DNA of 64,000 nt from Alphaproteobacteria bacterium (GTDB lineage: Bacteria; Pseudomonadota; Alphaproteobacteria; SHNJ01). The notes below the pieces were generated by a model that ran no database searches, was not told the DNA's origin, and saw only the letters and a program-made list of their open reading frames with translations. The DNA lies in the NCBI GenBank assembly GCA_004295055.1, contig SHNJ01000007.1, positions 73,081 to 137,080 on the forward strand, given 5' to 3'. Each line of letters starts with the position of its first letter. Within the stretch, counting starts at the first letter, position 1. The position numbers and the translations under genes are program-made. Shown in pieces: positions 1-21,469 of this stretch.

Positions 1-422
1 GCCGGGTGGCACGGTCCAATATTCCAATCCTGTTGAAAATGGGTGCAAAGGTACGCGTGATCGCGCCCCAATCCATGATGCCGCCAAATTATTTCGGCGG
101 ACAGGTGCAAAGTTTTACCGATTTGCGCGCAGGGATCAAGGATGCCGATATTGTGATGATGTTGCGCATTCAAAAAGAACGGATGCAAACCGACGAAGTT
201 CCCAATGAACGCGAATATGCGTTTCATTATGGGCTGGATATGGAAAAATTGAAATTGGCAAAGCCGGATGTTTTGGTAATGCATCCAGGGCCAATGAATC
301 GCGGCGTTGAAATTGATTCCGCGGTGGCCGATAATCCAAAACACAGTATTATTTTGGACCAGGTTAGTATGGGTGTTGCCATGCGCATGGCGATTTTGGA
401 ATGGATTTTAGCAGGTAAATAA
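1..422 (+). CDS. pyrB: Aspartate carbamoyltransferase catalytic subunit, C-terminal fragment (gene starts upstream of window)
   Basis: Translation contains the ATCase C-terminal motif [11 protein letters not shown] and conserved [13 protein letters not shown]; the ORF is open to the window edge. Confidence 0.85.
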
Positions 423-1106
423 ATGACTATATTCGATTCGATCAGCTTGGTATTCGTGTTTATGTTCTGCTATTTCATTGGCGCGATCCCATTTGGGCTG
501 ATCGTTACCAAATATGCTGGCTTAGGCGATATTCGCAATATTGGATCCGGCAATATTGGCGCAACCAATGTGCTGCGCACCGGACGCAAAGGCTTAGCGG
601 CGCTAACTTTGCTGTTGGACGGATTAAAAGGCGCGGTGGCGGTTTATTTGGGCACCCATGTATTAATGCCAGCCCACTTGGCTGAATTTAAAGACAATTA
701 TATTGCCGTATCGTCTTTGGCAGTGGTGCTTGGGCATATATTTCCGGTGTGGCTGAAGTTTAAGGGCGGAAAGGGCGTTGCCACGACATTCGGAGCCTTT
801 GCCATGATAAATCCAATATGGGCGTTAATGTTATTCATTATCTGGATGGGAATGGCGTTTAGTTTTCAATATTCTTCACTGTCCGCTCTTGTGGCTACTT
901 TTATTGCCCCTTTTATAGGGAAATATGTTTTCGATTTTTCTGGTACCGTATTTATTTCAACCTGCATTATTGCGGCGATAGTGATTATTAAGCATAAATC
1001 TAACATTCAGCGATTGTTGAATGGCACGGAAAGCAAAATTAATTTAAAGAAAAAATCCGCGCCACGGCAGGACAACCAAGATGACGGCACCGGTGTACCG
1101 CTCTAA
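423..1106 (+). CDS. plsY: Glycerol-3-phosphate acyltransferase PlsY
   Basis: Multi-TM protein with the PlsY signature GSGNIGATNVLRTGRK and FKGGKGVAT. Confidence 0.9.
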   Translation: MTIFDSISLVFVFMFCYFIGAIPFGLIVTKYAGLGDIRNIGSGNIGATNVLRTGRKGLAALTLLLDGLKGAVAVYLGTHVLMPAHLAEFKDNYIAVSSLAVVLGHIFPVWLKFKGGKGVATTFGAFAMINPIWALMLFIIWMGMAFSFQYSSLSALVATFIAPFIGKYVFDFSGTVFISTCIIAAIVIIKHKSNIQRLLNGTESKINLKKKSAPRQDNQDDGTGVPL

Positions 1107-2247
1107 TTCAGCGCCCAATTACGCGGCGCAGCCCTCAATCTCGGCCGAGGAGAAAATCCATTGGCTGCGACTGATTCGTTCTGAAAACGTTGGACCTATT
1201 ACTTTCTACCAATTGCTGCAACGGTTTGGCACCGCCAAAAAAGCCATCGAGGCCTTGCCGCATCTGGCCCGGCGCGGCGGTAAAAACGGCAATTTAAAAA
1301 TTTGTACGCTGGCGGATGCCGAAGCTGAAATGAAAGCCCATGAAAAGCATGGTAGCCGGATTGTGGTTGCCGCCGAAGCCGAATATCCGCCATTGCTAAA
1401 ACAAATCGAAGACGCGCCGCCAATTTTATCCGTGCGCGGCCATGCGCATTTGTTGCAAAAACCTTGTGCCGCGATTGTGGGTACACGCAATGCGTCGGCG
1501 GCTGGGCGTAAGTTTACTGAAAAACTGGCCAGTGAATTGGGCGAGGCGGGATATATCGTGGCCTCCGGCTTGGCGCGCGGGATTGATTCCGCCGCGCATA
1601 TTGCCGCGTTGCGAACCGGAACGATTGCGGTGATGGCCGGTGGCATCGATCAAATATACCCGCCGGACAATCAGGAATTATACAATCAAATCACGGAACA
1701 AGGAGTGCTGGCCAGTGAAATTCAATTCGGTATCAACCCGCAAGCGAGGCATTTCCCGCGCCGCAATCGGATTGTATCGGGATTGTCGCTGGGCGTTGTG
1801 GTGATCGAAGCCGCGTTACAATCGGGATCGTTAATCACCGCGCGTTGCGCGCTGGATCAAAACCGCGAAGTATTTGCCGTGCCCGGATCGCCGCTCGACC
1901 CGCGTTGCCAGGGCACCAACAGTTTGATTAAACAAGGTGCGACCTTGGTCGAATCGGCGGGCGATGTTCTGGAAGTATTACGCCGCATACAACCGCCCGC
2001 GGCCCATACCAAATCCGATGTATTTTTCAAGGCCCTGGCCTTTACCGAAGAAAAGGCAGAACAGATGATTGCCGAGGCCACACCTATTATATTAGAGCTT
2101 TTAAGCGCCACCCCAACCCCCATTGACGACTTGATCCGAATGTCGGGTTTAACCGCGCCAATCGTGCTTTCTGTGATCATGGAACTAGAGCTGGCAGGCC
2201 GTTTACAGCGCTTCCCTGGAAATAAAGTTGCATTATTCTATCATTAG
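1081..2247 (+). CDS. dprA: DNA processing/protecting protein DprA (Smf)
   Basis: Rossmann-like DprA core (IVGTRNAS, SGLARGIDSAAH, FAVPGSPLD) plus C-terminal winged-helix region; the predicted start overlaps the plsY 3' end so the true start is uncertain. Confidence 0.9.
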   Translation: MTAPVYRSNSAPNYAAQPSISAEEKIHWLRLIRSENVGPITFYQLLQRFGTAKKAIEALPHLARRGGKNGNLKICTLADAEAEMKAHEKHGSRIVVAAEAEYPPLLKQIEDAPPILSVRGHAHLLQKPCAAIVGTRNASAAGRKFTEKLASELGEAGYIVASGLARGIDSAAHIAALRTGTIAVMAGGIDQIYPPDNQELYNQITEQGVLASEIQFGINPQARHFPRRNRIVSGLSLGVVVIEAALQSGSLITARCALDQNREVFAVPGSPLDPRCQGTNSLIKQGATLVESAGDVLEVLRRIQPPAAHTKSDVFFKALAFTEEKAEQMIAEATPIILELLSATPTPIDDLIRMSGLTAPIVLSVIMELELAGRLQRFPGNKVALFYH

Positions 2248-2282
2248 AGTATAAGAGACAACTTTATAACTCACGGGGTACC

Positions 2283-3053
2283 ATGAGCAACGTCGTTATC
2301 GTCGAATCGCCGGCCAAGGCCAAGACTATTAATAAGTATCTGGGATCGGATTACACCGTTATCGCCAGTTTCGGTCATATCCGCGATTTGCCATCCAAAG
2401 ACGGTTCGGTCAAGCCGGACGAAGACTTTTCTATGATTTGGAGCCTCGAAGACCGGGGCGAGGCGCGTATTGCCGAGATTATTAAGGCCCTTAAGAATGC
2501 CGATACTTTATATTTAGCCACCGACCCTGACCGGGAAGGGGAAGCCATTTCCTGGCACGTTAAGGAAGTTTTGCAGGAAAAACGGGCGCTTAAGGACGTA
2601 AATGTCCGCCGCGTGACGTTCAATGAAATTACCAAGTCGGCTGTTAAAGACGCTTTTGACCATGCCCGCGACATAGACTCCCAATTGGTCGAAGCATACT
2701 TGGCGCGCCGGGCGCTGGATTATTTGGTGGGATTTAATATCTCACCAATTTTATGGCGCAAATTGCCAGGCTCTCGTTCGGCTGGGCGCGTGCAATCTGT
2801 TGCATTGCGTTTGATTTGTGAACGTGAATCCGAAATCGAAGTATTCAAGCCACAAGAATATTGGAGCATCCTTGGCACATTCAAATCCGCCAAAGGCCAT
2901 AGTTTCGAAGCGCGCTTGACGCATTTCGATAAGAAATTGGACAAATTCGATATCGGTAACAAGGATGCGGCGGATAAAATCCTGGCCGCTCTACAATCGC
3001 AACAATTCACCGTTGACGATATTGAAAAGAAAACCGTTCGCCGCAATCCATAA
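2283..3053 (+). CDS. topA: DNA topoisomerase I, N-terminal part (TOPRIM), ending at an in-frame TAA
   Basis: MSNVVIVESPAKAKTINKYLG and GHIRDLP TOPRIM motifs; the ORF stops at TAA 3051-3053 although the topA frame continues. Confidence 0.85.
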   Translation: MSNVVIVESPAKAKTINKYLGSDYTVIASFGHIRDLPSKDGSVKPDEDFSMIWSLEDRGEARIAEIIKALKNADTLYLATDPDREGEAISWHVKEVLQEKRALKDVNVRRVTFNEITKSAVKDAFDHARDIDSQLVEAYLARRALDYLVGFNISPILWRKLPGSRSAGRVQSVALRLICERESEIEVFKPQEYWSILGTFKSAKGHSFEARLTHFDKKLDKFDIGNKDAADKILAALQSQQFTVDDIEKKTVRRNP

Positions 3054-3122
3054 GCGCCGTTTATCACATCGACCTTACAACAAGAAGCATCGCGGAAACT
3101 TGGTTTAACTGCGTCCCGCACC

Positions 3123-4904
3123 ATGCGTTTGGCGCAGCAATTATATGAAGGCGTGGAAATCGGAGGCGAAACCGTTGGTTTGATCACCTATATGCGTACC
3201 GATGGTATTACATTGTCGGGCGAGGCGATTGGCCAAGCGCGCCGTTTCATCGAACGCGATTTTGGCAAAAATTATTTGCCGGATTCTCCGCGCGCTTATG
3301 TCAGTAAGGCGAAAAACGCGCAAGAAGCGCACGAAGCGATCCGCCCAACCGATATTTTCAGAACGCCGCAATCGATTGAAAAATACCTCGAAGGCGATCA
3401 GTATAAATTGTACGAATTGATTTGGAAACGCACCGTTGCTTGCCAAATGGAAAGCGCGGTATTGGACCAAGTCGGCGCCGATTTAAAAAGCACTGATGGC
3501 AAAAGTATTTTTCGCGCCACCGGTTCCGTGGTGGTGTTCGATGGATTTTTAAAAGTCTATCAAGAAACGCTGGACGAACCTGATGACAAAGAAGAAGGCG
3601 GACGTTTACCGGCGCTGGAAGTCGGCGAAAAAACCGCAAAAGAAAATATTCGCGGCGAACAGCATTTTACCCAGCCGCCGCCAAGATATTCCGAGGCAAG
3701 CCTTGTAAAGAAACTGGAAGAATTGGGCATTGGCCGTCCATCCACCTATGCCAGCATTATTCAGGTATTACAGGACCGCGATTATGTGCGGCTGGATAAA
3801 AAGCGCTTCATCCCGGAAGATCGCGGCCGTGTAGTCACGACGTTCTTGTCGGAATATTTTACCCGTTATGTGGAATATGGATTTACCGCCGGTCTGGAAG
3901 AACAGCTGGATGATATTTCCGCCGGCAATTTAAATTGGAAACAGGTTCTGCGCGATTTTTGGCGCGACTTCACCGGCGCGATTGAATCTTGCAAAGATTT
4001 GACGATCACCCAAGTTATCGACCGGTTGGATGCCGAATTGGGTCCGCATTTCTTTCCGCCGCAAAGTGATGGCCGCGATCCGCGCAAATGTCCGTCCGAC
4101 GGCGGACGTCTTGGTTTGAAACTGGGTAAATTTGGTGCCTTTATCGGTTGTTCCAATTATCCGGAATGCAAATTCACCAAACAATTGGCTGTTGCGCAGG
4201 CGGATGATGGCACTGGCACAGCCGATTTCCCGAACCAAAAGGAACTGGGCGTGGATTCCTTGTCCGGTATGATGGTCACGATCCGCAAAGGCCCGTATGG
4301 ATTTTATGTGCAATTGGGCGAGGCGGTGAAAAAAGGCGAAAAGCCGAAACGCATGGCCGTGCCGAAAAACGTGTCGCCGAACGATATTGATTTGGAAAAG
4401 GCATTGATCTTGCTTGCTTTGCCGCGCGATATCGGCAAACACCCGGAAAGCGGTGAAATGATCGCGGTGGGGCTTGGCCGTTTTGGTCCATTTCTGAAAC
4501 ATGGCGCGAAATACGTTACCTTGCCGCCAACCGAAGATATTTTTACGATCGGTATTAACCGCGCTGTTGTCGTTATTGCCGAAGCCAAAGATAAACCGTC
4601 CAATAACCGCGTTGCCGCAACGCCAGCCAAGGTTTTGGGCAATCACCCAACCGATGGCAAGCCAATCAAATCCGGCAAAGGCCGTTTTGGCCCGTATGTG
4701 CAATGGGGTAAAACCTATGCCTCGATCCCGAAATCGGTCGATCCCGATACGGTGGATTTAAATCAGGCGGTGGAATTGCTGGACGCTAAAATCGCCAAAG
4801 GCGCTGCGAAAAAAGCGGCAGCGGGCGGTGATGCGGATGTGGCGGAAAAACCAGCCAAACCAAAGGCCAAACGCGCGGCGAAGAAAAAAGCCGCTAGCGA
4901 ATAG
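3123..4904 (+). CDS. topA: DNA topoisomerase I, C-terminal part (catalytic Tyr region, zinc-ribbon and Lys-rich tail), same frame as the N-terminal part
   Basis: GLITYMRTDG active-site region and C4 zinc-ribbon cysteines; the 23 codons between 3054 and 3122 translate to APFITSTLQQEASRKLGLTASRT, a conserved TopA segment. Confidence 0.85.
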   Translation: MRLAQQLYEGVEIGGETVGLITYMRTDGITLSGEAIGQARRFIERDFGKNYLPDSPRAYVSKAKNAQEAHEAIRPTDIFRTPQSIEKYLEGDQYKLYELIWKRTVACQMESAVLDQVGADLKSTDGKSIFRATGSVVVFDGFLKVYQETLDEPDDKEEGGRLPALEVGEKTAKENIRGEQHFTQPPPRYSEASLVKKLEELGIGRPSTYASIIQVLQDRDYVRLDKKRFIPEDRGRVVTTFLSEYFTRYVEYGFTAGLEEQLDDISAGNLNWKQVLRDFWRDFTGAIESCKDLTITQVIDRLDAELGPHFFPPQSDGRDPRKCPSDGGRLGLKLGKFGAFIGCSNYPECKFTKQLAVAQADDGTGTADFPNQKELGVDSLSGMMVTIRKGPYGFYVQLGEAVKKGEKPKRMAVPKNVSPNDIDLEKALILLALPRDIGKHPESGEMIAVGLGRFGPFLKHGAKYVTLPPTEDIFTIGINRAVVVIAEAKDKPSNNRVAATPAKVLGNHPTDGKPIKSGKGRFGPYVQWGKTYASIPKSVDPDTVDLNQAVELLDAKIAKGAAKKAAAGGDADVAEKPAKPKAKRAAKKKAASE

Positions 4905-4909
4905 CTCCC

Positions 4910-5692
4910 TTATTTTTCAGCGACTGGGACCCTAGCGTTTCTTAATTTTCTAGTAAGGGAAGTAATGGAGACCGAGTTTGCGGCAGGGTGCTGGCGTTTC
5001 TGTACTTCATGCAAAGCGTCTCGGTACGGAATCGCTGTTGGCACAAGTGTTGTACATAAACGTCCGGCATTATCTATCACGCGATTGGCGCTATTGATGT
5101 TTTGATCAAGGTAGCTTGAGTCTCTTGCTTTACCATAAGCCCGCGCAGCGCGAATCGCATCATCTTGCGTCATGTTTTCAGGTACCAAAGTTTGATAAAC
5201 GCGATCCATTAATGGCCAGTTAAAATTTATATGCCCTTGTCTTGTTTGCAATAAAACTTCGCTTTGGCAGGTACGGACCATATGTTCCCCAATCGATGTT
5301 CTTTGATCCGGCGATAAACCCGTATGCCAGAATTGTACAAAATCTGCGGCGTTACGCGGCTGCGCAAAAAATTGCCTCAATGTGGAATGGGAGTTCCATC
5401 CTCTCCCACCCGGGATTAAATAGGCTAAACAAAAAATATCCAATCCAATGGGCGCATCTTGTTGTGCTTTGAAAGTAGCATCTGCGCGGCAGGCATAAGC
5501 AAGCAAAACTAGTGGTGAAACAGTTCCCTTTTGCCTTTCAATGTGGCTGATTAAGGCATCTGTTGCCACATCTACGGTAGTTTCGATAGTTTGCCCATCA
5601 CCGTCAACACAAACAATTTGCGGCTTGCGCGAAACCAACCATGCTTTCTCAGTGCTTTGGTTATAACCAGTGACATCACATATCCAGCTCAT
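4910..5692 (-). CDS. Hypothetical protein (no recognisable family), 260 aa
   Basis: Long ORF with coding-like composition between topA and the sugar cluster; no motif I can assign. Confidence 0.4.
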   Translation of the reverse strand: MSWICDVTGYNQSTEKAWLVSRKPQIVCVDGDGQTIETTVDVATDALISHIERQKGTVSPLVLLAYACRADATFKAQQDAPIGLDIFCLAYLIPGGRGWNSHSTLRQFFAQPRNAADFVQFWHTGLSPDQRTSIGEHMVRTCQSEVLLQTRQGHINFNWPLMDRVYQTLVPENMTQDDAIRAARAYGKARDSSYLDQNINSANRVIDNAGRLCTTLVPTAIPYRDALHEVQKRQHPAANSVSITSLTRKLRNARVPVAEK

Positions 5693-5819
5693 CTCACCCT
5701 CTATTATAGGTTCGTTTACTGAAATTCAGCCTAATATAAAAATAAGCCGAATCTCAAGAACAAATTCGGTGGCGAAATAATATAACCAAGGATAAGTCAG
5801 GGGTAGAGCTGGGCGGAGA

Positions 5820-6347
5820 TTAGAGTAACGGATAAGCCAAATCCCGTTCCGATATTATTCGATGAGTGATTTTTGGCCAATCGATGCCGATTTTTGGATC
5901 ATCCCAACGCAGGCCTTTGGATAATTCCGGATAATAAAATTCGGCCATTTGATAAAATACTTCACTGTTATCCGTCAGGGTTTGGAATCCGTGCGCGAAA
6001 CCTTCGGGGATATACATCGCACATCTATTTTCGGCGGTCAGTTCCACGCCAAACCATTCCAAGTAAGTATCGGAATCTGGACGGATATCGACCGCGACAT
6101 CGAAAATCCCGCCCATGGTGCAACGTACCAGTTTGGCTTCTTCGCGCGGAGCGGTTTGATAATGCAAACCGCGCAGCGTGCCAATCTTGTGGTTGAACGA
6201 AATATTGCATTGCGCCAATTTTGGATTGAGACCTTGTTTGATAAATTCTTCGCCGCACCAGGTGCGCGCAAAAAAACCGCGCTCGTCTGTTTGCAACTCC
6301 GGCTCGATAACAAATAGCCCTTCGATAGAGGTGGCGATAAATTTCAC
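5820..6347 (-). CDS. rfbC: NDP-4-keto-6-deoxyhexose 3,5-epimerase (RmlC-like cupin)
   Basis: RmlC family motifs (FIEPELQTDERGFF, RGLHYQ, DWP); likely GTG start at 6347 overlapping the upstream stop as TAGTG; the ORF track extends it to 6395. Confidence 0.8.
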   Translation of the reverse strand: MKFIATSIEGLFVIEPELQTDERGFFARTWCGEEFIKQGLNPKLAQCNISFNHKIGTLRGLHYQTAPREEAKLVRCTMGGIFDVAVDIRPDSDTYLEWFGVELTAENRCAMYIPEGFAHGFQTLTDNSEVFYQMAEFYYPELSKGLRWDDPKIGIDWPKITHRIISERDLAYPLL

Positions 6348-7618
6348 TATAATACCTTTACGGTTGGGATCGGTACCACGAACTTGCCGCCCCATTCCTT
6401 GATATAGGCATGGGTGTTAGCGACTTCATCCCGGATATTCCAAGGCAGAATTAATACATAATCCGGCTTGGTTTCCTTGATTTTTTCTGGCGCATAGATT
6501 GGAATATGCGTGCCGGGCAAAAACATATTCTGTTTATGCGGATTCAGATCCACCACATAATCCAGGAAATCGCCGCGAATGCCGCAATAATTCAGCAGCG
6601 TATTGCCCTTGGCCGCGGCGCCATAGCCGGCGATTTTCTTGCCTTGCTGCTTGGCTTCGATCAGGAATTCCAGCAATTTTTGCTTGGTCACGCGGACTTG
6701 TTGCGCGAATTTTTCATAAGTGCTGATTTGATCCAGCCCGAAAGTCAGTTCTTTTTTTAGAACATCTTGATATCCATCGGTCAAGGTCCGGTGGCCCTGA
6801 TGACAGGCGTGAATTCGCAAGCTGCCGCCATGGGTCGGTAATTCCTCGACATCGAAAATAGTTAGGCCGTGATGGGCAAAAACTTTGGAAATGGCGAGCA
6901 GGGAGAAATAACAGAAATGTTCATGATAAATAGTATCAAATTGGTTCTCTTCCATCAATTTCAGCAAATGGGGGAATTCAAAAGTGATAACGCCTTTTGG
7001 CGCCAGCAATATTTTTAATCCCAACACAAAATCGTTCAGATCGGGCACATGCGCCAAAACGTTGTTGCCCAATAATAAATCCGCTTGGCGGCCCTCGGCG
7101 ACCAATTTCTTGGCGCAAGCTACGCCAAAGAATTCAACACGGGTGGGAACGCATTTTTCGATTGCAACCTTGGCAACATTGGCGGCAGGCTCGATGCCCA
7201 AGGCAGGGATTCCGGCCTTTACAAAGTTCTGCAATAAATATCCGTCGTTGCTGGCAATTTCTATCACCAGCGAGCTTTTACCGATACCGTATTGTTTTTG
7301 CATTTGTTCGCAATAACGTTGGCAATGCGCCATCCAGCTGCTGGAATAGGATGAGAAGTATGCATAATCATGCGCAAAAATTTCTTCGGCGGTATGAAAC
7401 TGTTCCAACTGTACCAAGAAACATTTGTCGCAAACATAGGCGTGCAATGGATAAAACGGTTCCATATCTTTCAATTGATCTTCGCGCAAATAACGATTCG
7501 ATGGTGGGCTCATTCCCAAGTCGCACAGTGTTTGCGATAAATGGCCTTGGCAAAAACGGCAGATATTTTTCGGTGCCAGTCTTTCCTGTTTTGCGGCGAG
7601 ATTCGATACATTAGCCAT
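6347..7618 (-). CDS. NDP-hexose C-methyltransferase (TylCIII-like: N-terminal Cys4 zinc ribbon, SAM methyltransferase core, C-methyltransferase C-terminal domain)
   Basis: CRFCQGH...CDKC zinc ribbon, SAM-binding IEIASNDGYLL, long C-terminal domain typical of sugar C-methyltransferases; ATG at 7618 overlaps the rfbG stop (ATGGCTAA). Confidence 0.7.
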   Translation of the reverse strand: MANVSNLAAKQERLAPKNICRFCQGHLSQTLCDLGMSPPSNRYLREDQLKDMEPFYPLHAYVCDKCFLVQLEQFHTAEEIFAHDYAYFSSYSSSWMAHCQRYCEQMQKQYGIGKSSLVIEIASNDGYLLQNFVKAGIPALGIEPAANVAKVAIEKCVPTRVEFFGVACAKKLVAEGRQADLLLGNNVLAHVPDLNDFVLGLKILLAPKGVITFEFPHLLKLMEENQFDTIYHEHFCYFSLLAISKVFAHHGLTIFDVEELPTHGGSLRIHACHQGHRTLTDGYQDVLKKELTFGLDQISTYEKFAQQVRVTKQKLLEFLIEAKQQGKKIAGYGAAAKGNTLLNYCGIRGDFLDYVVDLNPHKQNMFLPGTHIPIYAPEKIKETKPDYVLILPWNIRDEVANTHAYIKEWGGKFVVPIPTVKVL

Positions 7619-8726
7619 GGTGATCCCCATTAATGAATTCCATAATTTGCGAACGGGTAACATTTTCAACATTTTTTCCTTGATGCTGAACGGCGTACCA
7701 GTGGGCCGTTTTTTGAATTGCCTGTTTTGTGGTCCAGCGCGGATTCCAGCCCAGCGTTTTGCGCGCCAGGCGGTTGTCCAACATCAATAATTTCGCTTCG
7801 TATATGCTATTGTCAGGCACATGTTTCCATTCAGCTTTGGACTTTGAACGGGTATTCCATTCTGTAACAAAATGGTCTGCAATCCAACCAACCGTTTGGC
7901 AATCGCGCGCGTCCGGGCCGATATTAAACGATAATAATGGCGATCGGTGTTTGGCGGTTTCCTCTACAATCCGCATGATCGCATAACAAGGTTCCAGCAC
8001 GTGTTGCCAGGGGCGCACCGATTGCGGATGACGCAGAATTAATGGCTGGCCTGTGCCAAAGGCGCGAACCGCATCTGGAATCAGCCTGTCCACCGACCAG
8101 TCGCCACCGCCAATCACATTGCCGGCACGCAATGTGGCGAATGGGATATTTCGCGATTTGAAATAACTATGCCAATAAGACGAGGTTACAATTTCAGCGC
8201 AGGCCTTGCTGGCGCCATACGGTTCGTAACCGCCCAATTTATCATTCTCGCCATAACCGCGCTGAACTTCGATATTTTCGTAAACTTTGTCTGTGGTGAA
8301 AATCAAAACCGCTTGCAGATCTTTGCATTCGCGTGCGGCTTCTAACACATGAATCGTGCCATTGACATTGGTTGAAAATGTATCGACCGGATCTTTGAAG
8401 GCTGGACGGACTAAGGCTTGTGCGCCCAAATGCAGAATAATATGCGGGTTGAATTCAGAAATGGCCTTTTTGACGGCGCCTGCATCACGCAAATCGGCGA
8501 TATGGTGCTTGCCATAATTTTTAATTCCGGAAAGATCATAAAAGCTTGGATCGCTGGATGGGGCTAACGAAAATCCGGCCAACTCGACTTCCATTTCACG
8601 CAGCCAGAAATACAGCCACCCGCCAATAAATCCGGTATGGCCGGTAATTAAAACGCGTTTATTTAGCCAGAAATTTTTATCTAAGGGGTGGGGAAGTTGG
8701 GTGGAACGGGAAAGAAAAGAAAACAT
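7611..8726 (-). CDS. rfbG: CDP-glucose 4,6-dehydratase
   Basis: N-terminal FWLNKRVLITGHTGFIGGWL Rossmann motif, YGASKACAE catalytic YxxxK, size and order after rfbF. Confidence 0.85.
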   Translation of the reverse strand: MFSFLSRSTQLPHPLDKNFWLNKRVLITGHTGFIGGWLYFWLREMEVELAGFSLAPSSDPSFYDLSGIKNYGKHHIADLRDAGAVKKAISEFNPHIILHLGAQALVRPAFKDPVDTFSTNVNGTIHVLEAARECKDLQAVLIFTTDKVYENIEVQRGYGENDKLGGYEPYGASKACAEIVTSSYWHSYFKSRNIPFATLRAGNVIGGGDWSVDRLIPDAVRAFGTGQPLILRHPQSVRPWQHVLEPCYAIMRIVEETAKHRSPLLSFNIGPDARDCQTVGWIADHFVTEWNTRSKSKAEWKHVPDNSIYEAKLLMLDNRLARKTLGWNPRWTTKQAIQKTAHWYAVQHQGKNVENVTRSQIMEFINGDHHG

Positions 8727-8730
8727 GCGC

Positions 8731-9534
8731 CTACCACAGACGCCATGGCGCCTGACCCTTGTTCCACATGTTGTTCAGCATTTCCATTTCGCGGTATGTA
8801 TCCATGCACTGCCAGAATCCGCCATGCTGATAAACGGCCAATTCGTCGTCACGCGCCAATTTCTCCAATACACCATTTTCCAGGCTGACATCGGTTGAAT
8901 CTTCATCGACATGATCGAATGCGGTTTTGTTTAATACCAGGAAGCCGCCATTGATCCAGCCTTCGGCGACTTGCGGTTTTTCGGCAAAACTATTGACCAT
9001 GCCTTCCTGTATGCCAAGTTCGCCAAACCGGGACGAGGGGCGCACGGCGGAAACCGTTCCCAGTTTTTGCGCGCGGCGATGAGTTTCCAATAATGCCTTT
9101 AAATCGATGTTCGATACACCATCGCCATAAGTCGCCATGAAAGTATCGTTGCGTACATATTTCAACGCCCGTTTGATACGCGATCCGGTCAGTGTGTCGC
9201 GGCCAGTCTCAGCCAGAACAATACGCCAGTCTTCACGATAGGTGTTGGTCAGTGTTTCAACATCGCCGGTTGAAAAATCAATGGCAAAATCGCTGTTCCT
9301 AAAGTGATAGTTTAAAAAATAATCGCGAATGGCATCGCCCTTATATCCAAGACACAGAATAAAATTCTTCACGCCAAAAGAATGGTAGTGTTTCATGATG
9401 TGCCACAGCACCGGGCGGCCACCGACCTCAACCATTGGTTTCGGCTTAAATTCGGTTTCTTCGCGCAATCGCGTGCCTAGGCCGCCGCATAAAATAATGG
9501 CGTCCATTTTGCCGATTTCGTTTGGTGCAACCAT
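8731..9534 (-). CDS. rfbF: Glucose-1-phosphate cytidylyltransferase
   Basis: DAIILCGGLGTRL nucleotidyltransferase motif and full-length similarity pattern to RfbF; true start probably the internal ATG (about 9507). Confidence 0.85.
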   Translation of the reverse strand: MVAPNEIGKMDAIILCGGLGTRLREETEFKPKPMVEVGGRPVLWHIMKHYHSFGVKNFILCLGYKGDAIRDYFLNYHFRNSDFAIDFSTGDVETLTNTYREDWRIVLAETGRDTLTGSRIKRALKYVRNDTFMATYGDGVSNIDLKALLETHRRAQKLGTVSAVRPSSRFGELGIQEGMVNSFAEKPQVAEGWINGGFLVLNKTAFDHVDEDSTDVSLENGVLEKLARDDELAVYQHGGFWQCMDTYREMEMLNNMWNKGQAPWRLW

Positions 9535-9610
9535 GTGAATAAAAACCTTAGGGAGGGACTTAATATCCCTTATAGTCTAGTAAAAGTTAAAGAAAGCTTA
9601 AATCGCTAAC

Positions 9611-10126
9611 TTAACCAATAACGTGTTGAACGGAATATTTGTTGTTTGAAAGCACGAATTGGCGGGCAATCCGGCGGACGCTGTCGACCAGAATAGGGGC
9701 GCGATGGTTGATCGACATGGTAATACCTTGGCCTGGCGCCAGGGTACGGATAGTAATGACAAACATAACTATCAAATCTGGTTTTTGAATGCCTAAGCTG
9801 TCGGCGGCCTCTTTTAAATCTTCGGCATCGATCGGCGCCGTATCGGGATCGGTCGGCAATACAATAAAAGACAGGCGAGGTTCCGCCAAACACTGTAATA
9901 AATTGAATTGGGGCATGTTCGGTAAATTAGCCAGGCCAAATTCATGCACATCCGGAAAACCAACAATGCCAACTGGGAAATTGATTGCCAAGCTGCGATC
10001 ATATTCAAAGGTGCCAAGGTTGTTGGTAATCCGTACCAAATTCGGATTATCCGAACTCGATTCGGTTATGGCCGGCGGGGCGGGATCATTTGGGGCCATT
10101 TGGGTTGCACATCCTTGGTTAAACAT
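9611..10126 (-). CDS. fliW: Flagellar assembly factor FliW
   Basis: FliW-like core (LAINFPVGIVGFPDVHEFGL, FIVLP), size about 150-170 aa, located immediately downstream of flgL. Confidence 0.75.
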   Translation of the reverse strand: MFNQGCATQMAPNDPAPPAITESSSDNPNLVRITNNLGTFEYDRSLAINFPVGIVGFPDVHEFGLANLPNMPQFNLLQCLAEPRLSFIVLPTDPDTAPIDAEDLKEAADSLGIQKPDLIVMFVITIRTLAPGQGITMSINHRAPILVDSVRRIARQFVLSNNKYSVQHVIG

Positions 10127-10146
10127 AACGATGCTCCATATTAAAA

Positions 10147-11154
10147 TTAACGCAGGAAGTTCACAAGACTTACCTGATTCAGACGGGAAATAGTCATGTA
10201 AGAAGCCTCCAGCTGTGTCTGTTCTGCACTAAGCTTGGCCATGGTTTCTGGAATATCGGCTGCTTGCAAGTCTTGAACCAGATCTTCGATTTTGCCCAAA
10301 TACGCGCCATGCGTGTCTTTGGTATCTAATAACATGCGGCCTTGAGCGCCGATGGTTGCCCTGGTATCGGCCAGACTGCCGATCACCGTAGTCATAATGG
10401 TCGAAGCCCCTTCCAGGCGGTCATGTTGTTCCGCGGTTGGCGCTGCGCCAATAGTGGCTGCCAAACGCAAAGCATAAATCAATTGGGCAAAAGCCGGATT
10501 TGAAGCGGTTGTACCGATGGATACAGATAAATTGTCATCCGCGCGCACAGTTTGTGTTGCGGTATTGCCCATATAGTAACCGAAATATTCGGATGTAGCG
10601 TTTGCACCGATGGTTACTGGAAAAGTGGTCGGTGTAGCGGGCAATGTCGGTACGGTATAAGCGTTCGGAGCGTTGAAATTGGTTGGAATAGGCATTGGCG
10701 CGCCCCAACGAGTGGTGTCTACGGGGCGTGTATTGGTCATGCTGCCGGCAAATAAATATTGGCCGTCCACCTGTTTGTTTAGCGTGCTTTGCAAGCTATC
10801 CAGCATGGACTGTGCTTGGGTAGATAAAGAAATCAAGTCGGCATTGTTGGCATTTAAAGCGCCAGTCAATAATGTTTTAAATTGTTCGGCTATACCTTGG
10901 ATGCTGGTCATCGACGCATCGAATTCGTCAATTTTTCTGTCCGCTATGGTAATATTGTCTTGATATCGTTTGATACGCATGTAACTGTTTTCAAGACTCA
11001 GTGCCTGATTGGCGGAAGAGGCAATATCGGAATAGGTTTCACCTTTACGTCCGGTGGCGGCTTGAATCTGCAATGCGGATACACGCGCTTGCGAGTTTTG
11101 AATCAGCAAGTTAATGCTGGTAAATTTTGAATAATCGCCGACACGGAAAGCCAT
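10147..11154 (-). CDS. flgL: Flagellar hook-associated protein 3 FlgL
   Basis: Flagellin-family N-terminal helix and C-terminal LSRLNQVSLVNFLR; follows flgK. Confidence 0.8.
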   Translation of the reverse strand: MAFRVGDYSKFTSINLLIQNSQARVSALQIQAATGRKGETYSDIASSANQALSLENSYMRIKRYQDNITIADRKIDEFDASMTSIQGIAEQFKTLLTGALNANNADLISLSTQAQSMLDSLQSTLNKQVDGQYLFAGSMTNTRPVDTTRWGAPMPIPTNFNAPNAYTVPTLPATPTTFPVTIGANATSEYFGYYMGNTATQTVRADDNLSVSIGTTASNPAFAQLIYALRLAATIGAAPTAEQHDRLEGASTIMTTVIGSLADTRATIGAQGRMLLDTKDTHGAYLGKIEDLVQDLQAADIPETMAKLSAEQTQLEASYMTISRLNQVSLVNFLR

Positions 11155-11335
11155 GATACTACCTCATTAAGGCTGCGGTAAAAGTCATTTTTGGTTTAGT
11201 TAAAGACGAATTCTTGGAAACATCGCAATTGTCCGCTGGTTTATTGTCAATCAATTCATCCGACAGAAAATTGCGTTTATATAAAGAATAGCTGGCCATT
11301 TTTGTTTTTTTATTCATGATCGTACCCTCCTGTCA

Positions 11336-13102
11336 TTATCCAAGAATTCTGGTTAGTTCATCGAACATTTGGTTAACCGTACGAATTACCTGTGCCGATG
11401 CATTGTATGCATTTTCTAAAACCACCATATTCGACATCTCTTCATCGATGCTTACGCCGCTTTCGCTGCCGATGCGTTTGTCCAGATTGTCAATGGTGGT
11501 TTGCGAAATATCGTAATCGGAATTGGCTGTTGAAGCGAGGCTGGCGTTAAATGAAATTAATGCGGCACTGAAATTGCCTATGGTGTTAGTCATTGCGGGC
11601 ATGCCGCCAACCGCAGAGAATGAGTATTGTGTAGTAAATACTGCGGCAAGACGTTGTGCGACCGATCCATCGCCAGGCGCGACGCCGTTTTCGCCAACAA
11701 CTGCGGTTAAAGATAAATCGCCGCGCGAGATATAGCCTGGGTTGGAAACCAAGGTTGGATTTACGGCCAAAGACAATGCTAAATCCCCATTTACCGCAGG
11801 ATTGTCTGTGCCGGTAAAAAAGTCATTTAGCCCAAAATACTGGGACAAGCCCTGGCCAGTTGCGCCGACTTGGCCGGTATTTTCATTGATTGCAACGCCG
11901 TTTGCCGCATTGGTGGCTTGGATTACTATTTGGCCGCTGGCATTAATAGTGCAAGTGCCGTCCGGACCAAGGGCGGCGTTAATAGCGGTAGTTACCGCGC
12001 CCACGGTCGATGCGACGGCTGGTAAGTTATAATCGACCACACGGACGATTGCACCGGTTGCATCGGTAATCGCAATACGAACCGCGCCAGTACTGGCGGG
12101 AAAAACTGTACCGGCGGCAAGTCCGCTTTGGGTGCCTGTTAAAGTACGTTGGGCCGGAACGCAGGTGCCATCATTGTGTACCGCATTCACGCGATCACGC
12201 AGAGCCAAGGCCATGGTGTCCAATTGGGCCATATAGTTCGGCAAAGTGGTATCGCGCAGAGTAATTAAAGATTTTAATTTGCCATTGGTGACTCGAGAAG
12301 TCAGATCGCCAACGCCACCGATGGTAATCGCACCAAAAGTAGTAGATGGGCTAACTACGGCTGCTGGGGTATAAGCGACTGTTTGTACCGTATCGCCAAC
12401 AAGATTATATCCGCCAATCGTGACCATGGTTCTGCCGTCACTGCGCGTATAGGTGGCAACGTCTACCAATTCGGCTAATTCGCGAATGGCTTGATCGCGG
12501 CGATCTTGGGCATCGGTAACGGACGAACCGCCAGCTGTGGTGTTGATGCCTTGCACGATTTGGTCGTTTAGATCATCGATTTGTGTTGCCAATTCATTAA
12601 TTCTACTAATGGTCGTACCGATTTCTTGGTCTGACTGGCCACGCAAATTGTTGGTGCTGGTTGCCATGGAATTGATTTGACGGGCCATGCGTACGGCGTC
12701 GTTCACCGTATCGGCTTGAGTTTGTGTATTTTGTGGTGTCGCGCCTAAGGCCTCGAACGAAGCGGCAAGGCGGCCGATATTGGCATTAATCGCATTTGCG
12801 GAACCGGGTGTGCCGAAGCTGTCTTGCACGCGAGCTAAATAAGTGCTTTGCACATTGCTTAAACCCATACGGCTCATTTGGCTGCGAAGTTCCCTGGCCA
12901 AACCATCATTGACCCGGCGCGTAACGCCAGCAATATCAACGCCGCCACCAATGCCGTTGGCGGTACGGCTCATTTGCTGAACGATTTTGCGGGTATATCC
13001 AGGGGTATTTACGTTAGAAATATTGTTCGACGTCACCGCCAAGCCGAACTGATTCAAGTTCATGCCGGAAAGAGCATTGCGCATGGCGAGGGTGAGTGAC
13101 AT
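11336..13102 (-). CDS. flgK: Flagellar hook-associated protein 1 FlgK
   Basis: N-terminal MSLTLAMRNALSGMNLNQFGLAVTSNNISNVNTPGYTRK rod/hook family motif and C-terminal MVVLENAYNASAQVIRT. Confidence 0.9.
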   Translation of the reverse strand: MSLTLAMRNALSGMNLNQFGLAVTSNNISNVNTPGYTRKIVQQMSRTANGIGGGVDIAGVTRRVNDGLARELRSQMSRMGLSNVQSTYLARVQDSFGTPGSANAINANIGRLAASFEALGATPQNTQTQADTVNDAVRMARQINSMATSTNNLRGQSDQEIGTTISRINELATQIDDLNDQIVQGINTTAGGSSVTDAQDRRDQAIRELAELVDVATYTRSDGRTMVTIGGYNLVGDTVQTVAYTPAAVVSPSTTFGAITIGGVGDLTSRVTNGKLKSLITLRDTTLPNYMAQLDTMALALRDRVNAVHNDGTCVPAQRTLTGTQSGLAAGTVFPASTGAVRIAITDATGAIVRVVDYNLPAVASTVGAVTTAINAALGPDGTCTINASGQIVIQATNAANGVAINENTGQVGATGQGLSQYFGLNDFFTGTDNPAVNGDLALSLAVNPTLVSNPGYISRGDLSLTAVVGENGVAPGDGSVAQRLAAVFTTQYSFSAVGGMPAMTNTIGNFSAALISFNASLASTANSDYDISQTTIDNLDKRIGSESGVSIDEEMSNMVVLENAYNASAQVIRTVNQMFDELTRILG

Positions 13103-13129
13103 AGGAGCGATCCTTTTCCTAAATTAATC

Positions 13130-13594
13130 CTATAAGCGTTGGTCCAAAGTAACCGACAACGCTTCCTTATTGCCTTTGCCGGCATTGGCAGTAACCGTGG
13201 CCGGGTTGCTGTAGCCGCGTGTGCTAGAAACTTGTTCAATTGCAGCGTCGCGAATTGCCTCAAGAACGCGCAAATTAATGTGTCTTGCGGCCGTCAATAA
13301 ATGGATATTCTCACTGGCGGCTTCATCGAAACGGGCAGCCAGATCGTTCAATAATGCTTTCTGATCCTGGCTGATCGATGCAACTACGGCAGGATTTTCA
13401 CGCAAAACGCGAATCTGATTTTCATAGGCAAAGCTTAGACGGGCTTTTTCGCTTTGCAGGCCGCCGGCAGTGTTATATTTACGGTCCTTCAGCAGGGCAT
13501 TTTCTTCACTGATAACGTGAATTAACTGTTCGCTTACGCCGATCAGCATATCGATAAAATCGCTTTTATTTTCCACGGCTATGGTTTGGGTCAT
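13130..13594 (-). CDS. Putative flagellar export chaperone (FlgN-like), low confidence
   Basis: Small helical protein sandwiched between flgJ and flgK and translationally coupled to flgJ; assignment by position and composition only. Confidence 0.3.
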   Translation of the reverse strand: MTQTIAVENKSDFIDMLIGVSEQLIHVISEENALLKDRKYNTAGGLQSEKARLSFAYENQIRVLRENPAVVASISQDQKALLNDLAARFDEAASENIHLLTAARHINLRVLEAIRDAAIEQVSSTRGYSNPATVTANAGKGNKEALSVTLDQRL

Positions 13595-13905
13595 TTTGCC
13601 GCTCCTTGAATTTTGATCATTTCTTTCAAGATTGCATCGCTAATGCCAAGTCCGCCTTTTTGGCTCATGGCGTTGGCATATTCTTGAACCATCATCGAAC
13701 GAAACATATCTTCGCCATGTCCGCCGCCAAATTGGCTATTGGTTTTGATACCGGCAAACATTTGTTGCATCATTTCATTCAAAAATACCGATTCAAAATC
13801 CTGCGCGGCTTTTTTCATTGCCGGCAGATTTTTAGGCGCTGCTTCCGGCAATTTCGCTTCCGGGCGCATCATATCGGCTGTGGTGGCGGGTAAAGCGATA
13901 TCCAT
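13591..13905 (-). CDS. flgJ: Flagellar rod-binding protein (FlgJ N-terminal domain only / CheL-like)
   Basis: AAQDFESVFLNEMMQQMF rod-binding motif; no muramidase domain, as in alphaproteobacteria. Confidence 0.75.
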   Translation of the reverse strand: MDIALPATTADMMRPEAKLPEAAPKNLPAMKKAAQDFESVFLNEMMQQMFAGIKTNSQFGGGHGEDMFRSMMVQEYANAMSQKGGLGISDAILKEMIKIQGAAK

Positions 13906-15035
13906 TACATTACCTCGATATCGGCTTGCATCGCGCCAGCGGCTTTGATGGCTTGCAGAATGCTGATCATATCGCGTGGACCAATGCCAAGAGCATTCAG
14001 GCCGACCACTAAATCTTGAATCGATATACCGGCGCGCATAATGGTCATGCGTTTTTCCGAATCGTCGTCGACTTCAATCTTGGTGCGGTCAACCGTAGTG
14101 GTTTCCCCGGTTTCGGAAAAAGCGTTCGGTTGGGATACTTGCGGTGTTTCTGTAATTTTGATGGTTAGATTGCCTTGGGCGATTGCAACGGTGTTGATGC
14201 GCACATTTTCACCCATAACGATAATGCCGGATTGTTCATCAATCACGACGCGGGCTAATTGATCCGGTGCAATACGCAATTGTTCAATGTCGGTAATAAA
14301 GGCGACGGAATCTTTTTGGTATTTTTCCGGAACTTCAATAACGATAGTGCCAGGATCATTGGCTTTGGCGGCTTGCGCGCCAACGAAGCTGTTGATCGCT
14401 TCGGCAACCCGGCTGGAGGTGGTGAAGTCCGGATTACGCAAAGCAATTTTTAAAGTCTGCAATTCTTTCATTTGGAATGGCAATTCGCGTTCGATGATCG
14501 CGCCATTGGCAATACGGCCGTTGGTTGGCACGCCGCGCGTTACGCTGCCGCCTTTGCCTTCGGCGGTAAAACCGCCAGCGGCAATTTGGCCTTGAGATAC
14601 GGCGTAGACTTCGCCATCAGCGCCAAGCAGGGGTGTAACCATCAAAGTGCCACCCAGTAAACTTTTAGCATCGCCAATAGTGGCGACCGTAATATCAATT
14701 CGGCTGCCTTGACGGGAAAATGGGGGCAGGGTTGCGGTAACCATGACCGCGGCAACGTTTTTGGTTTTCAAGGCATCGTCCCGGGCGTTGATGCCAAGAC
14801 GTTCCAACATACCGATCAAGCTTTCTTTGGTGAATACAGAAGATGTAAGCGAATCGCCGGTGCCGTTCAAACCGACAACAAGTCCGTAACCGACGAGCAT
14901 ATTGTCGCGAACGCCTTCAAAATCGGCGATATCTTTGATGCGGGACATGGCGGCAACCGGGCTTGCAGGCATAAGGCAAGCGATCAGAGCGACCGATAGA
15001 ATGATTTTTCTGCGAATTTCCCCAAAACTAAACAT
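13905..15035 (-). CDS. flgI: Flagellar P-ring protein FlgI
   Basis: Signal peptide, IKDIADFEGVRDNMLVGYGLVVGLNGTGD and full-length FlgI pattern. Confidence 0.92.
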   Translation of the reverse strand: MFSFGEIRRKIILSVALIACLMPASPVAAMSRIKDIADFEGVRDNMLVGYGLVVGLNGTGDSLTSSVFTKESLIGMLERLGINARDDALKTKNVAAVMVTATLPPFSRQGSRIDITVATIGDAKSLLGGTLMVTPLLGADGEVYAVSQGQIAAGGFTAEGKGGSVTRGVPTNGRIANGAIIERELPFQMKELQTLKIALRNPDFTTSSRVAEAINSFVGAQAAKANDPGTIVIEVPEKYQKDSVAFITDIEQLRIAPDQLARVVIDEQSGIIVMGENVRINTVAIAQGNLTIKITETPQVSQPNAFSETGETTTVDRTKIEVDDDSEKRMTIMRAGISIQDLVVGLNALGIGPRDMISILQAIKAAGAMQADIEVM

Positions 15036-15865: not shown

Positions 15866-16321
15866 ATGTTTATGATGACCGCAAAACCGCAAACCGCTGT
15901 AATGACCTTGGCTCCGGATTACAAACCATCGACCAAGGAAGAATATATGTGTCCGGCGCATTTGGAATATTTCCGCCGCAAGTTGATCGCGTGGAAAGAG
16001 GAAATTTTGCGCGAATCAAAACAGACTCTGCATCATATTCAGGAAGAAAGTTTACAGCAGCCGGATATTACCGACCGCGCTTCGCTGGAAACCGATATGG
16101 CGCTGGAATTGCGCACCCGCGATCGCGAACGCAAGCTGATTTCTAAAATCGATGCGGCGATGGAGCGTATCGAGCAGGGCGAATATGGCTATTGCGAAGA
16201 AACCGGTGCGCCAATCGGCTTGGCCCGACTAGAGGCTCGTCCGATAGCCACCTTGTGCCTTGAAGCGCAAGAGAGTCACGAGAAATACGAACGTACCCAT
16301 CGCGACGAAGATAAAGAATAA
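15866..16321 (+). CDS. dksA: DksA/TraR-family RNA-polymerase-binding transcription factor
   Basis: Coiled-coil plus C-terminal GEYGYCEETGAPIGLARLEARPIATLCLEAQ DksA finger region. Confidence 0.8.
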   Translation: MFMMTAKPQTAVMTLAPDYKPSTKEEYMCPAHLEYFRRKLIAWKEEILRESKQTLHHIQEESLQQPDITDRASLETDMALELRTRDRERKLISKIDAAMERIEQGEYGYCEETGAPIGLARLEARPIATLCLEAQESHEKYERTHRDEDKE

Positions 16322-16349
16322 TTCTTATATATTCAAGAAAAGTGCCAGG

Positions 16350-18902
16350 TTATGCGTTTGGCAATAGATGCTTGTTGAGGATTTTCTCTACGGTGGCTAG
16401 TTGCACTGGCTTGCTGATGTAATCATCCATTCCGGCATTCAGGGATTTTTCGCGATCGCCTTCTAATGCATCTGCGGTTAAGGCAATAATTGGGTGACGT
16501 TTAGATTGATTTTCCCTTTCTTTCGATCGGATAAGGTTCGTGGCCTGAAAGCCATCCATTTCCGGCATATGAAAATCCATAAAAATTAAATAATAATCTT
16601 TTTTCAGAAACATATCGACCGCTTCGACGCCATTGCTAGCCACATCGGTATTGCATCCGAATTTGGCCAGTACGCTTCGCATCAGCATTTGATTGATGGC
16701 CATGTCCTCGACTACCAGAATATTGCGATTCTGAAATTGGAGAATGTTGTTTTTGCGTTTTTCAGAAAGACGTGGATCCTGAAAAATGCTTTTAATAAAA
16801 TTACGTGTGATGAAATCAGTTGGTTTATTGCTGCTGATTCTGTCCCAAATTAAAATAATGGTTTGCTGAATTTCGGTGGGGTAATAAGGTTTAGTTAACA
16901 TTCCGGCAAATCCGATGGATGACAATTCCTGTTGATTTCCAGCATAAAGATGGGAAGTTAATAGAATTAAGGCTGTATTTTTGATTTTAGGGTTGGCTTT
17001 TATTCTTTGGGCAAGGGTTTTTCCGTCCTGATCCGGCATACGGTAATCTAGAAGGGCAATGTGATATGGCTCGCCTTTGTCCGCCATTGTTATAAGTTCT
17101 TGATAAGCGGCTTCGGAACTATTAACCGCATTGTGGAAAATATTCCAGTTATGACAATAGGCCGCTAAAATATCCGCACTAACAGGATAATCGTCGACAA
17201 TTAGTAAGCGTACAGAAGATATATCTTTTTTCTCCAGTATGAAACCGCTGGTTTCCTTGGCGCCAGGCGCGTTGCTGGCTATGGTAAATGGGATAGTAAG
17301 ACTAAAAGTGGATCCTTCTCCGAATCTGCTGTTTGCAACAATATCGCCACCCATCATCTCGGTTAATTTCTTGCAAATGGTTAACCCCAAACCACTTCCA
17401 CCAAACCGGCGGGTGGTAGATGCCTCGGCTTGGCTGAAAACAGTAAAAATATGGTCTATTTTATCTGGTGAAATGCCGATACCGCTGTCTTTAATTTCAA
17501 AAGTGATAGAGACTTTTTCCTGATCAATGGATTTTGTTTTTATTTCCAATAAAACATAACCCTCCAAGGTAAATTTCAATGCATTACCGAGCAGGTTGAG
17601 CAGTATTTGCCTGACGCGTACAGGGTCGCCAATCAAATTTTCAGGAATCTCGTTGCTGGCATACATTAATAATTCAAGATTCTTTTCTTTGGCCGTAACA
17701 GCCAAAAGATCCATGCATTCTTCAATGATTTTGGATAGGCTGAATGGAATGGATTCTAAGGTAAATTTACCGGCTTCGATTTTGGTAAAATCCATAATAT
17801 CATTGATTAATGTAAGCAAGGAATCGCCGGACCGGCCGACTATTTCCGCCCAGCGCCGCTGTTCTTCGTCCAAATCGCTGTCTAGGAGTAAAGAAGTCAT
17901 GCCTATGACAGCATTCATTGGCGTTCGTATTTCATGGCTCATATTGGCTAGAAATTCGGATTTCGCCGCGCTTGCTTTTAATAATAAGGTATTGGTGGCA
18001 GCCAGTGTTCTGACCGTTTGGTATAACATTATTAGAATAGCAGTGACGTAGCAGATCAAGACTAAAGATAGTAGAAATAAACCAATATTATAAAATACTT
18101 CTGCATTGCGGGCAATGTCCGATCTTTGTGCAATTAGAGAGTTTAGTTCATTCAATAAGTCCTTATTTTCTGGAGCTAATAATTGTTTGGTCAAGTGCAG
18201 AACATCCACATGAGCATTAAGAATAATTCTGATATGTTTTGCCATATATTCCAAACTTTTCTGGTCATCGACAGATAAGCGATAAGGAAAGTGGTCTATA
18301 TTTTTAAGCGCCTGCTCTACATCGAGTCTGCTTTGCTCTTCCCCATCAATGAGGAATAGTAAAGTTGCCTGGTATAGCGCATCGATTTGAAACGCGGCGT
18401 TATGCTGGTTCTTTTTATGTAGGGCCACATCAAGTTCTTGATATATCGTGGGCATATATTTGGCGGAGTTGCGCAGAATGGCATTTTTCGCCTTGAATTC
18501 TTCTAAGGTAGCTTTGCGGACATTATTAAATTCAATATATTTTTCAATGCCGGATTTTATAGACTGTCCAATAATCTGATATTGGCGAGAGTTATATGGA
18601 GATGGGAGAAGAAAGGAAGCGGATATTTGGTTGGTGGTCTCGATTTCTTCTTGAACGACCAGTGATGTTTCATTAATTGCCTGGGATAGGTGTACTAAAC
18701 TATCATAGTTATTCAATAGATTGTTCTTTGCCAATAAAATATTTTCATTCAACTCCGAATTCAAGCTTCGTAGAGTTAGCAACTCATTAAATATGGCAGA
18801 GTAAATATTTCTGGATGACCAATAAGATTGGTAGAAAAAGAAGCAGACCCCGGCGGCCAGGATTGAAATGAAGAAAAAATGCCTTTGAAGGGAATGTTTC
18901 AT
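16350..18902 (-). CDS. Hybrid sensor histidine kinase with periplasmic sensor domain (2 TM), HisKA/HATPase core and two C-terminal receiver domains
   Basis: H-box [21 protein letters not shown]-box motifs, two REC domains ([14 protein letters not shown]... and [13 protein letters not shown]...DFHMPEMDG); AT-rich codon usage. Confidence 0.85.
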
Positions 18903-18904
18903 GA

Positions 18905-19867
18905 CTACTCTGGGACAGGCAATGTGCCAGTTAAAGTTTTAAGGAATTCAACCAGCTTGTGGCGTTCATCAGCCGATAAGGTGCGGCCCAGTTGGTATTT
19001 GGCCATAATATCGACCGCTTCTTCCAAGGTTTTAGCGGTACCATCGTGAAAATAAGGCGCCGTTTTATTTACATTGCGCAGTGATGGAACTTTAAATACA
19101 TATCGATCTTCTTCTCTATGAGTAACGTTAAAGCGTCCATTATCTTCCTGCGTTAAATTTCCACGATCTTTGAAGTAATCACCAACAATGCCGAATTTCT
19201 GGAACATATTGCCGCCGACATTTTCCCCCTGATGGCATGAAGAACATCCCAAATCTTTGAACAATTTATATCCCGCCTTGGCATCTGCAGAGATTGCAAG
19301 TTTCTTGCCCGTTAAGTATTGATCAAATGGCGAATTAATAGGAATAAGGGTGCGTTCGTAATTGGCGATAGCATCTTTGATATTCTTTTCTGTCGGGGGA
19401 GATTTATAAACTTCTCGGAATGCATCGGCATATTCCGGTATTGTTTTCAGCTTGGCAATAATATCGGGCCAAGTATTGCCCATTTCGTCTGGATTTAAAA
19501 TCGGCCCATTAATTTGTTCTTCTAAAGTCGCCGCGCGGCCGTCCCAGAATTGCGCTAAATTAAGTGCGCTGCCCCAAATCGTAGGTACATTGATAAGCAG
19601 GTTTTTTCCGCTTACGCCTTGGATCGGATAAGGTGCATTTAAAGCGCCGCTATTTGCGATATCGTGACAAGAGGAGCAAGAAAGTTTATCGTTCTTGGAC
19701 AGCCTTGGGTCATGGAATAACTTCTGGCCCAATTTTGCACGTCCATGATCCAGTCCTTTTATGGATGTGACGGGTTGAATAGGTTCATTGCTATAAGACG
19801 TGTGATCCAAACCCATGGCGCAGGAAGGAAACAATAAAAGACAAAGAATAAAGTAAATATAGCGCAT
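18905..19867 (-). CDS. Di-heme cytochrome c peroxidase (CCP/MauG family), secreted
   Basis: Signal peptide; two CXXCH motifs (CSSCHD, CSSCHQG), conserved FWDGRA and PYFHDG; stop overlaps the kinase start (ATGA). Confidence 0.85.
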
Positions 19868-19895
19868 TATTTCAACAGGTTTGTTACAGGGAAAA

Positions 19896-21448: not shown

Positions 21449-21469
21449 GGGGGGAGTAGAAACTTTAAA

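Follow-up and report, generated by a model that had tools for sequence, protein, structure and literature searches.

Bacterial type IA DNA topoisomerase I (TopA) has a common domain order, in which a Toprim domain is followed by a Topoisom_bac core with the catalytic tyrosine in an ITYMRTD motif, a zinc ribbon and C-terminal repeats; the enzymes of E. coli (4RUL, 1ECL) and of mycobacteria (5D5H, 6PCM) have this order, and it is the same in the gene described here. E. coli cells that lack topA can be grown in culture only if compensatory mutations are present, and extra topoisomerase III has been reported to suppress the topA defect in part (PMC3313902). As far as the account in PMC6160223 goes, the usual compensators of a topA-null state are substitutions in gyrA or gyrB, or amplification of parC/parE. 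For Bacillus subtilis, what is described in PMC6547408 extends to the replacement of all type IA enzymes by topoisomerase IV.

The topA gene considered here lies in a window of 64,000 nucleotides, the whole stretch of DNA that was analysed, from an uncultured alphaproteobacterium with a GC content of about 47%. Its TopA shares 63-67% identity with the enzymes of Dongiaceae, Nitrospirillum and Stellaceae, and among the matches listed the closest species-representative genome is Nitrospirillum-like, at 61% on the protein level. The original prediction, made on the window, had drawn attention to a stop codon within this gene and had offered three explanations for it, namely a sequencing or assembly error, a very recent nonsense mutation and stop-codon readthrough; the first two survive the analysis presented below, whereas the third is left without support.

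The topA gene and its interruption

The interruption is a TAA at 3051-3053, where the window reads CGC AAT CCA TAA GCG CCG (3042-3059). The ORFs on its two sides, 2283-3053 (256 aa) and 3123-4904 (593 aa), are separated by a gap of 69 nt and share one frame, as had been predicted and as is borne out by the single-frame translation of 2283-4904, which spans 873 codons and is interrupted by one internal stop. The features of the gene are the following.

2283..4904, plus strand: whole topA (type IA DNA topoisomerase I), 873 codons and a terminal TAG, read across the internal TAA (single-frame translation, P0001 match, Pfam)
2283..3050, plus strand: N-terminal ORF of 256 aa, with the Toprim domain and the first 122 positions of the core profile, without the catalytic Tyr (ORF list, Pfam)
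3051..3053, plus strand: premature TAA in place of TAC for Tyr257, the changed base being 3053, a third-position C-to-A transversion (L081 alignment, sister species)
3054..3122, plus strand: 23 orphaned codons, translating to APFITSTLQQEASRKLGLTASRT, directly past the position that aligns with the E. coli Gly in KPGAPFITSTLQQ (translation)
3123..4904, plus strand: downstream ORF of 593 aa from Met281, with the remainder of the core, Tyr303, the zinc ribbon and the C-terminal repeats (ORF list, Pfam)

Pfam places the Toprim domain (PF01751, E = 1.7e-21) and positions 2-122 of the Topoisom_bac profile on the first ORF, and positions 125-410 of the same profile after the stop, as in one gene cut into two pieces; the rest of Topoisom_bac is followed by the zinc ribbon and three Toprim_C_rpt domains. 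The acidic residues of the Toprim domain stand before the stop (E8 in VESPAKA; D81-P-D83-R-E85 in DPDREGE), and the catalytic tyrosine of the Topoisom_bac core (PF01131), Tyr303 in GLITYMRTDG with its codon at 3189-3191, lies past it. At the C-terminal end Zn_ribbon_Top1 (PF01396, E = 1e-12) and three copies of PF13368 (E = 5e-54) are found, as in alphaproteobacterial TopA, and a PDB sequence search with TopA returned strong matches (E = 1e-116 to 1e-150), the core aligning to solved TopA structures. The gene is a standard alphaproteobacterial topA.

The zinc ribbon (residues 603-629, window 4089-4169) has three cysteines only, C603 in C603-P-S-D, C623 and C629. Among the related proteins, the CPSC...C...C set is complete in P0003, and CPND is found in P0002; since a cysteine ligand is missing here and P0002 carries CPND, the TopA metal site may be degenerate in this lineage.

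The window contains 11 pairs of long open stretches that share a frame, and 10 of the 11 (all but topA) are explained without gene breakage, most of them being adjoining genes, each with a Pfam family of its own. The topA pair is not such a chance pairing of adjoining genes, and the prediction of a single in-frame TAA in an otherwise intact topA is upheld by translation, by Pfam and by the intact conspecific allele described in the next section.

As the record stands, translation would end after Pro256; the resulting 256-aa fragment would have the Toprim domain but not Tyr303, and no useful enzyme would be expected from the downstream 593-aa ORF. If the TAA is real, the product would lack the catalytic tyrosine and the gene would in effect be a null allele. 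A gene caller would report topA either as two ORFs or as a pseudogene, and topoisomerase I would wrongly go missing from inferences on the completeness or metabolism of the genome.

Codon 257 in the conspecific, the sister species and more distant homologues

The joined protein was searched against a collection of 5.8 billion protein clusters. The best match, P0001, comes from contig 1370 of the Logan assembly SRR8466248; it is 873 aa long and 100% identical apart from residue 257, where it has Tyr (RRNPYAPFITSTLQQ). Between the contig that carries it (L081) and positions 1-14904 of the window there is one mismatch, at 3053, with A in the window and C in the contig, that is TAA against TAC. 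Since this is the sole mismatch in 14,904 aligned bases, the 2,622-nt topA carries no further change, and the reading frame that is interrupted in the window at 3051-3053 is whole in L081 and P0001. Position 3053 is covered by one conspecific assembly (SRR8466248), no topA-covering contig of SRR8466247 having been retrieved. A comparison with closely related genomes had been proposed together with a list of sense codons to look for, and the independent conspecific assembly does have one of these, TAC.

The same codon is found in a sister species, which has 84% DNA identity to the window and an identical gene order, running from OTCase through a plsY-like gene and dprA to topA and then to sugar-nucleotide and flagellar genes. 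The triplets CCA TAC GCG are present in all four sister assemblies, which come from different samples (GCA_013565695.1, with contig L082, SRR27901409, SRR28520275 and JACCDG010262434.1; the remaining contigs are L083, L084 and L092). Since TAC is present both in the conspecific and in the four sister assemblies, it is the ancestral codon.

Among more distant proteins, P0002-P0004 (75-80% identical) have RRNPYAPF, with Tyr at the position in question, and P0005 (67%) has Pro. A sense residue was found in 117 of the 117 homologues scored at position 257 (Q 32, P 21, F 21, Y 19, S 11, A 11, L 1, W 1); the aligned residue is Gly in the E. coli enzyme and Tyr in those of mycobacteria. The original prediction was therefore right that the segment is conserved and that homologues have a sense codon at this place; in detail, however, the E. 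coli motif is KPGAPFITSTLQQ, with Gly, and not RRPSAPFITSTLQQ as had been given, and the description of the site as a Pro/Ser/Ala region is inexact, the closest relatives having Tyr.

Neither the 256-aa nor the 593-aa product has an exact match among about 15 billion public proteins. A 52-nt pattern in which the site was left open (N) had no match in the JGI metagenome contigs, and a 23-nt pattern matched one contig only, which belongs to the sister species and has TAC. On the sequences compared, the stop is thus private to the present record, with TAC in each of the conspecific and sister-species assemblies that cover the site.

Differences between the window and independent assemblies

The window was compared with Logan contigs of SRR8466248 and SRR8466247 over 57,991 of its 64,000 bases, the stretches 56640-58186 and 59539-64000 being left out. 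Five sites differ in these 57,991 bases, four of them by transversion.

3053: window A, Logan C; topA Y257*
15316: window C, Logan A (A in both SRR8466248 and SRR8466247); 8 nt ahead of the start codon of fliX (15324)
16592: window A, Logan (SRR8466248) C; D771Y in the YDLIFMD motif of a receiver domain, hybrid histidine kinase
45803: window T, Logan C; synonymous third position in valS (43431-46163)
45809: window G, Logan C; synonymous third position in valS, 6 nt from 45803

With five differences in the compared bases, the window belongs to the same population as these assemblies, with a different consensus. Each site outside topA has features of its own. Position 15316 falls in the likely ribosome-binding region of fliX. 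The hybrid histidine kinase gene (16350-18902, minus strand, 850 aa) has DAHL, HisKA, HATPase_c and Response_reg domains, and D771Y, in the KKDY[D/Y]LIFMD stretch of its last receiver domain, is a radical change of an Asp that is usually conserved and that stands five residues ahead of the presumed phospho-acceptor Asp. The two valS sites flank CCGGC; being linked and silent, they suggest genuine variation between strains, or a short tract of recombination, and not random error.

Exact-protein look-ups returned 'not on record' for several genes, including 20234-21241 and 16350-18902. The failure for 16350-18902 is explained by D771Y, and, because the DNA of 20234-21241 is identical in the window and the Logan contigs, a failed look-up of this kind does not point to a difference.

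Polymorphism within the sister species comprises 99 transitions and 45 transversions. Under this spectrum the probability of at least four transversions in five differences is 0.036, against 0.46 under uniform random error. The spectrum of the differences is error-like, which with five sites is weak evidence. No shared sequence motif around the five sites, of the kind linked to methylation-dependent base-calling error, was seen by eye.

Gene neighbourhood

The window contains a large flagellar gene cluster, in which an ORF of about 1,134-1,138 aa without a Pfam match (28255-31671, plus strand) lies between a response-regulator gene and fliP. The stretch 16000-22000, which is enclosed by flagellar genes, has a GC content of 0.405-0.428, against about 0.47-0.50 elsewhere, and carries genes for the hybrid histidine kinase mentioned above, a CCP_MauG cytochrome c peroxidase, an Hpt protein and a response regulator. 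Directly downstream of topA, on the minus strand (4910-5692), is a 260-aa ORF without a Pfam match, the position and length of which are kept in the sister species.

On the other side of the locus, upstream of OTCase, positions 1-6294 of the sister contig from GCA_013565695.1 (L082) encode a Vsr endonuclease, a C5 DNA methylase, a DUF6119 protein and an 831-aa protein without a Pfam match; this segment resembles an island of the restriction or defence type. In the conspecific contig L081 the first called gene upstream of OTCase is preceded by 378 bases, too few for a comparison of the island. Near the far end of the window, the ORF of a seryl-tRNA synthetase (59576-61048, plus strand, 490 aa) gave no match in the exact-protein look-up; its Pfam matches are an N-terminal domain that reaches to residue 107 and a class II core that starts at 287. 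Further differences between the window and the assemblies may lie in this stretch, which is outside the compared bases.

Origin of the stop codon

The stop is a private, extremely recent and unprogrammed single-base change, because the TAA is unique, no other lesion accompanies it, rescue signals are absent and TAA serves as a normal terminator. In the likeliest account, the A at base 3053 stands where the topA of the organism normally has C, turning the TAC of Tyr257 into TAA, and it would stem either from a consensus or base-calling error or from an unrepresentative minority allele taken up by the assembler. Such an error or minority allele is probably the cause of the TAA, and the A at 3053 presumably does not represent the living population. 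Speaking for an error, the window has no sign of genome decay and no second broken gene, its coding density being about 94% (66-ORF estimate) with no other split gene, and E. coli does not tolerate the loss of topA unless it is compensated. About 4.2% of random single substitutions in topA create a stop, so that one nonsense change among four unselected coding changes (~16%) is unremarkable. On the other side stand the four further differing sites, with the linked synonymous valS pair looking natural, and the size of the data, the transversion argument consisting of five sites and the conspecific assemblies at 3053 of one. Since the valS changes resemble strain-level variation, the source may be a truly distinct genotype with a real TAA.

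That genotype would carry a genuine, very recent topA Y257*, with topoisomerase I lost and supercoiling rebalanced elsewhere. We regard this as possible but doubtful, and equally tentative is the form that the rebalancing would take, with reduced-activity gyrA/gyrB alleles, extra topoisomerase IV or topoisomerase III as candidates. The window genotype does stand slightly apart from the Logan assemblies (five SNPs in 57,991 bases, including the natural-looking valS pair and D771Y), and very close genomes often still hold deleterious changes that have not been purged. Compensated topA-null E. coli grow, and in B. subtilis topoisomerase IV substitutes for the type IA enzymes. Against a genuine loss, the intact allele occurs in the same population and the difference spectrum is error-like; moreover, the back-up topoisomerase I/III gene suggested in the original prediction was not found by Pfam within the 64-kb window, no second type IA topoisomerase being present among the calls for the genes from 1 to 56 kb and from 56 to 64 kb. 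Any inactivation of topA would be extremely recent, as the 2,622 nt are otherwise unchanged. If the TAA is the majority base in the reads, the strain is a natural topA-null; a compensated strain of this kind would be conceivable, but it would belong to known biology, compensation of topA loss through gyrase or topoisomerase IV being established for E. coli.

It is also conceivable in principle that the TAA is real and that full-length TopA is nevertheless made by leaky or suppressor-tRNA readthrough, with near-cognate Tyr, Gln or Lys at Pro-UAA-G, although we consider this quite improbable. Position 257 tolerates many residues in the 117 homologues, and insertion of Tyr or Gln would for this reason give a normal enzyme; Tyr, Gln and Lys are reportedly the residues inserted in a yeast study of UAA readthrough, and in E. 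coli termination is slowed by a C-terminal proline. Spontaneous readthrough of UAA in bacteria is very low, of the order of 1e-4 to 1e-3, and it is hardly credible that a free-living flagellated alphaproteobacterium would live on trace amounts of readthrough TopA, with leaky termination keeping a presumably essential gene in function. None of the relatives compared has the stop; a stop conserved in orthologues, which is a feature of programmed readthrough, was not found, the codon being TAC in L081, L082, L083, L084 and L092. TAA is also the commonest terminator in the window, and G follows in 10 of the 37 TAA stops, as it does here. The suppressor tRNA that had been proposed was not detected, ARAGORN finding no tRNA within the 64-kb window, and the fold of 3040-3160 (121 nt) gave no sign of a stimulatory RNA structure (-26.1 kcal/mol against a shuffle mean of -29.05, z = +0.80). 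Readthrough is unlikely, and nothing points to its being enhanced.

A naturally split enzyme, in which products of 256 and 593 aa would be made by reinitiation at ATG 3123 and would assemble into an active form, is very improbable. Both ORFs are long, in frame and 69 nt apart, and type IA enzymes made in two parts are known, such as the reverse gyrase of Nanoarchaeum, which is encoded by two genes. A start at ATG 3123 would, however, drop 23 highly conserved codons (APFITSTLQQ...), and the gene is unsplit in the conspecific and in all relatives. No in-frame ATG, GTG or TTG occurs in 3054-3122, ATG 3123 being the first in-frame start, and the 25 nt before it (ggtttaactgcgtcccgcaccATG) contain no purine-rich Shine-Dalgarno-like stretch. 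Reinitiation was rejected on these features of the sequence.

Reassignment of TAA to a sense codon in this organism, for which nothing speaks besides the in-frame TAA itself, has a next to negligible probability and is refuted for the window, since TAA is the commonest terminator of the 66 non-overlapping ORFs of at least 100 aa (TAA 37, TAG 21, TGA 8) and the in-frame stop is confined to topA among the window genes. A split enzyme or codon reassignment is thus very improbable at best. A decaying pseudogene was likewise dismissed, the 2,622-nt gene having no other difference from the intact allele and no broken gene nearby.

Comparison with known systems

Set beside bacterial TopA in general, the gene is unlike its counterparts in two respects, the cutting of the frame by TAA at codon 257 and the three cysteines of the zinc ribbon; its dprA-topA neighbourhood is common to the alphaproteobacterial relatives. 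With programmed readthrough and suppression the locus shares an in-frame stop, an open and conserved continuation and a position that tolerates near-cognate residues, but it is unlike them in that the stop is not conserved, no stimulatory structure accompanies it, the window contains no tRNA and the codon is the main terminator. From an established pseudogene it differs in having no frameshifts, no extra substitutions and no adjoining broken genes. The finding is of an ordinary, already known kind, and no new decoding mechanism, signal or system is indicated; like internal-stop pseudogenes and the consensus errors of draft metagenome-assembled genomes, topA here combines one substitution in an otherwise perfect gene with an intact allele in a parallel assembly.
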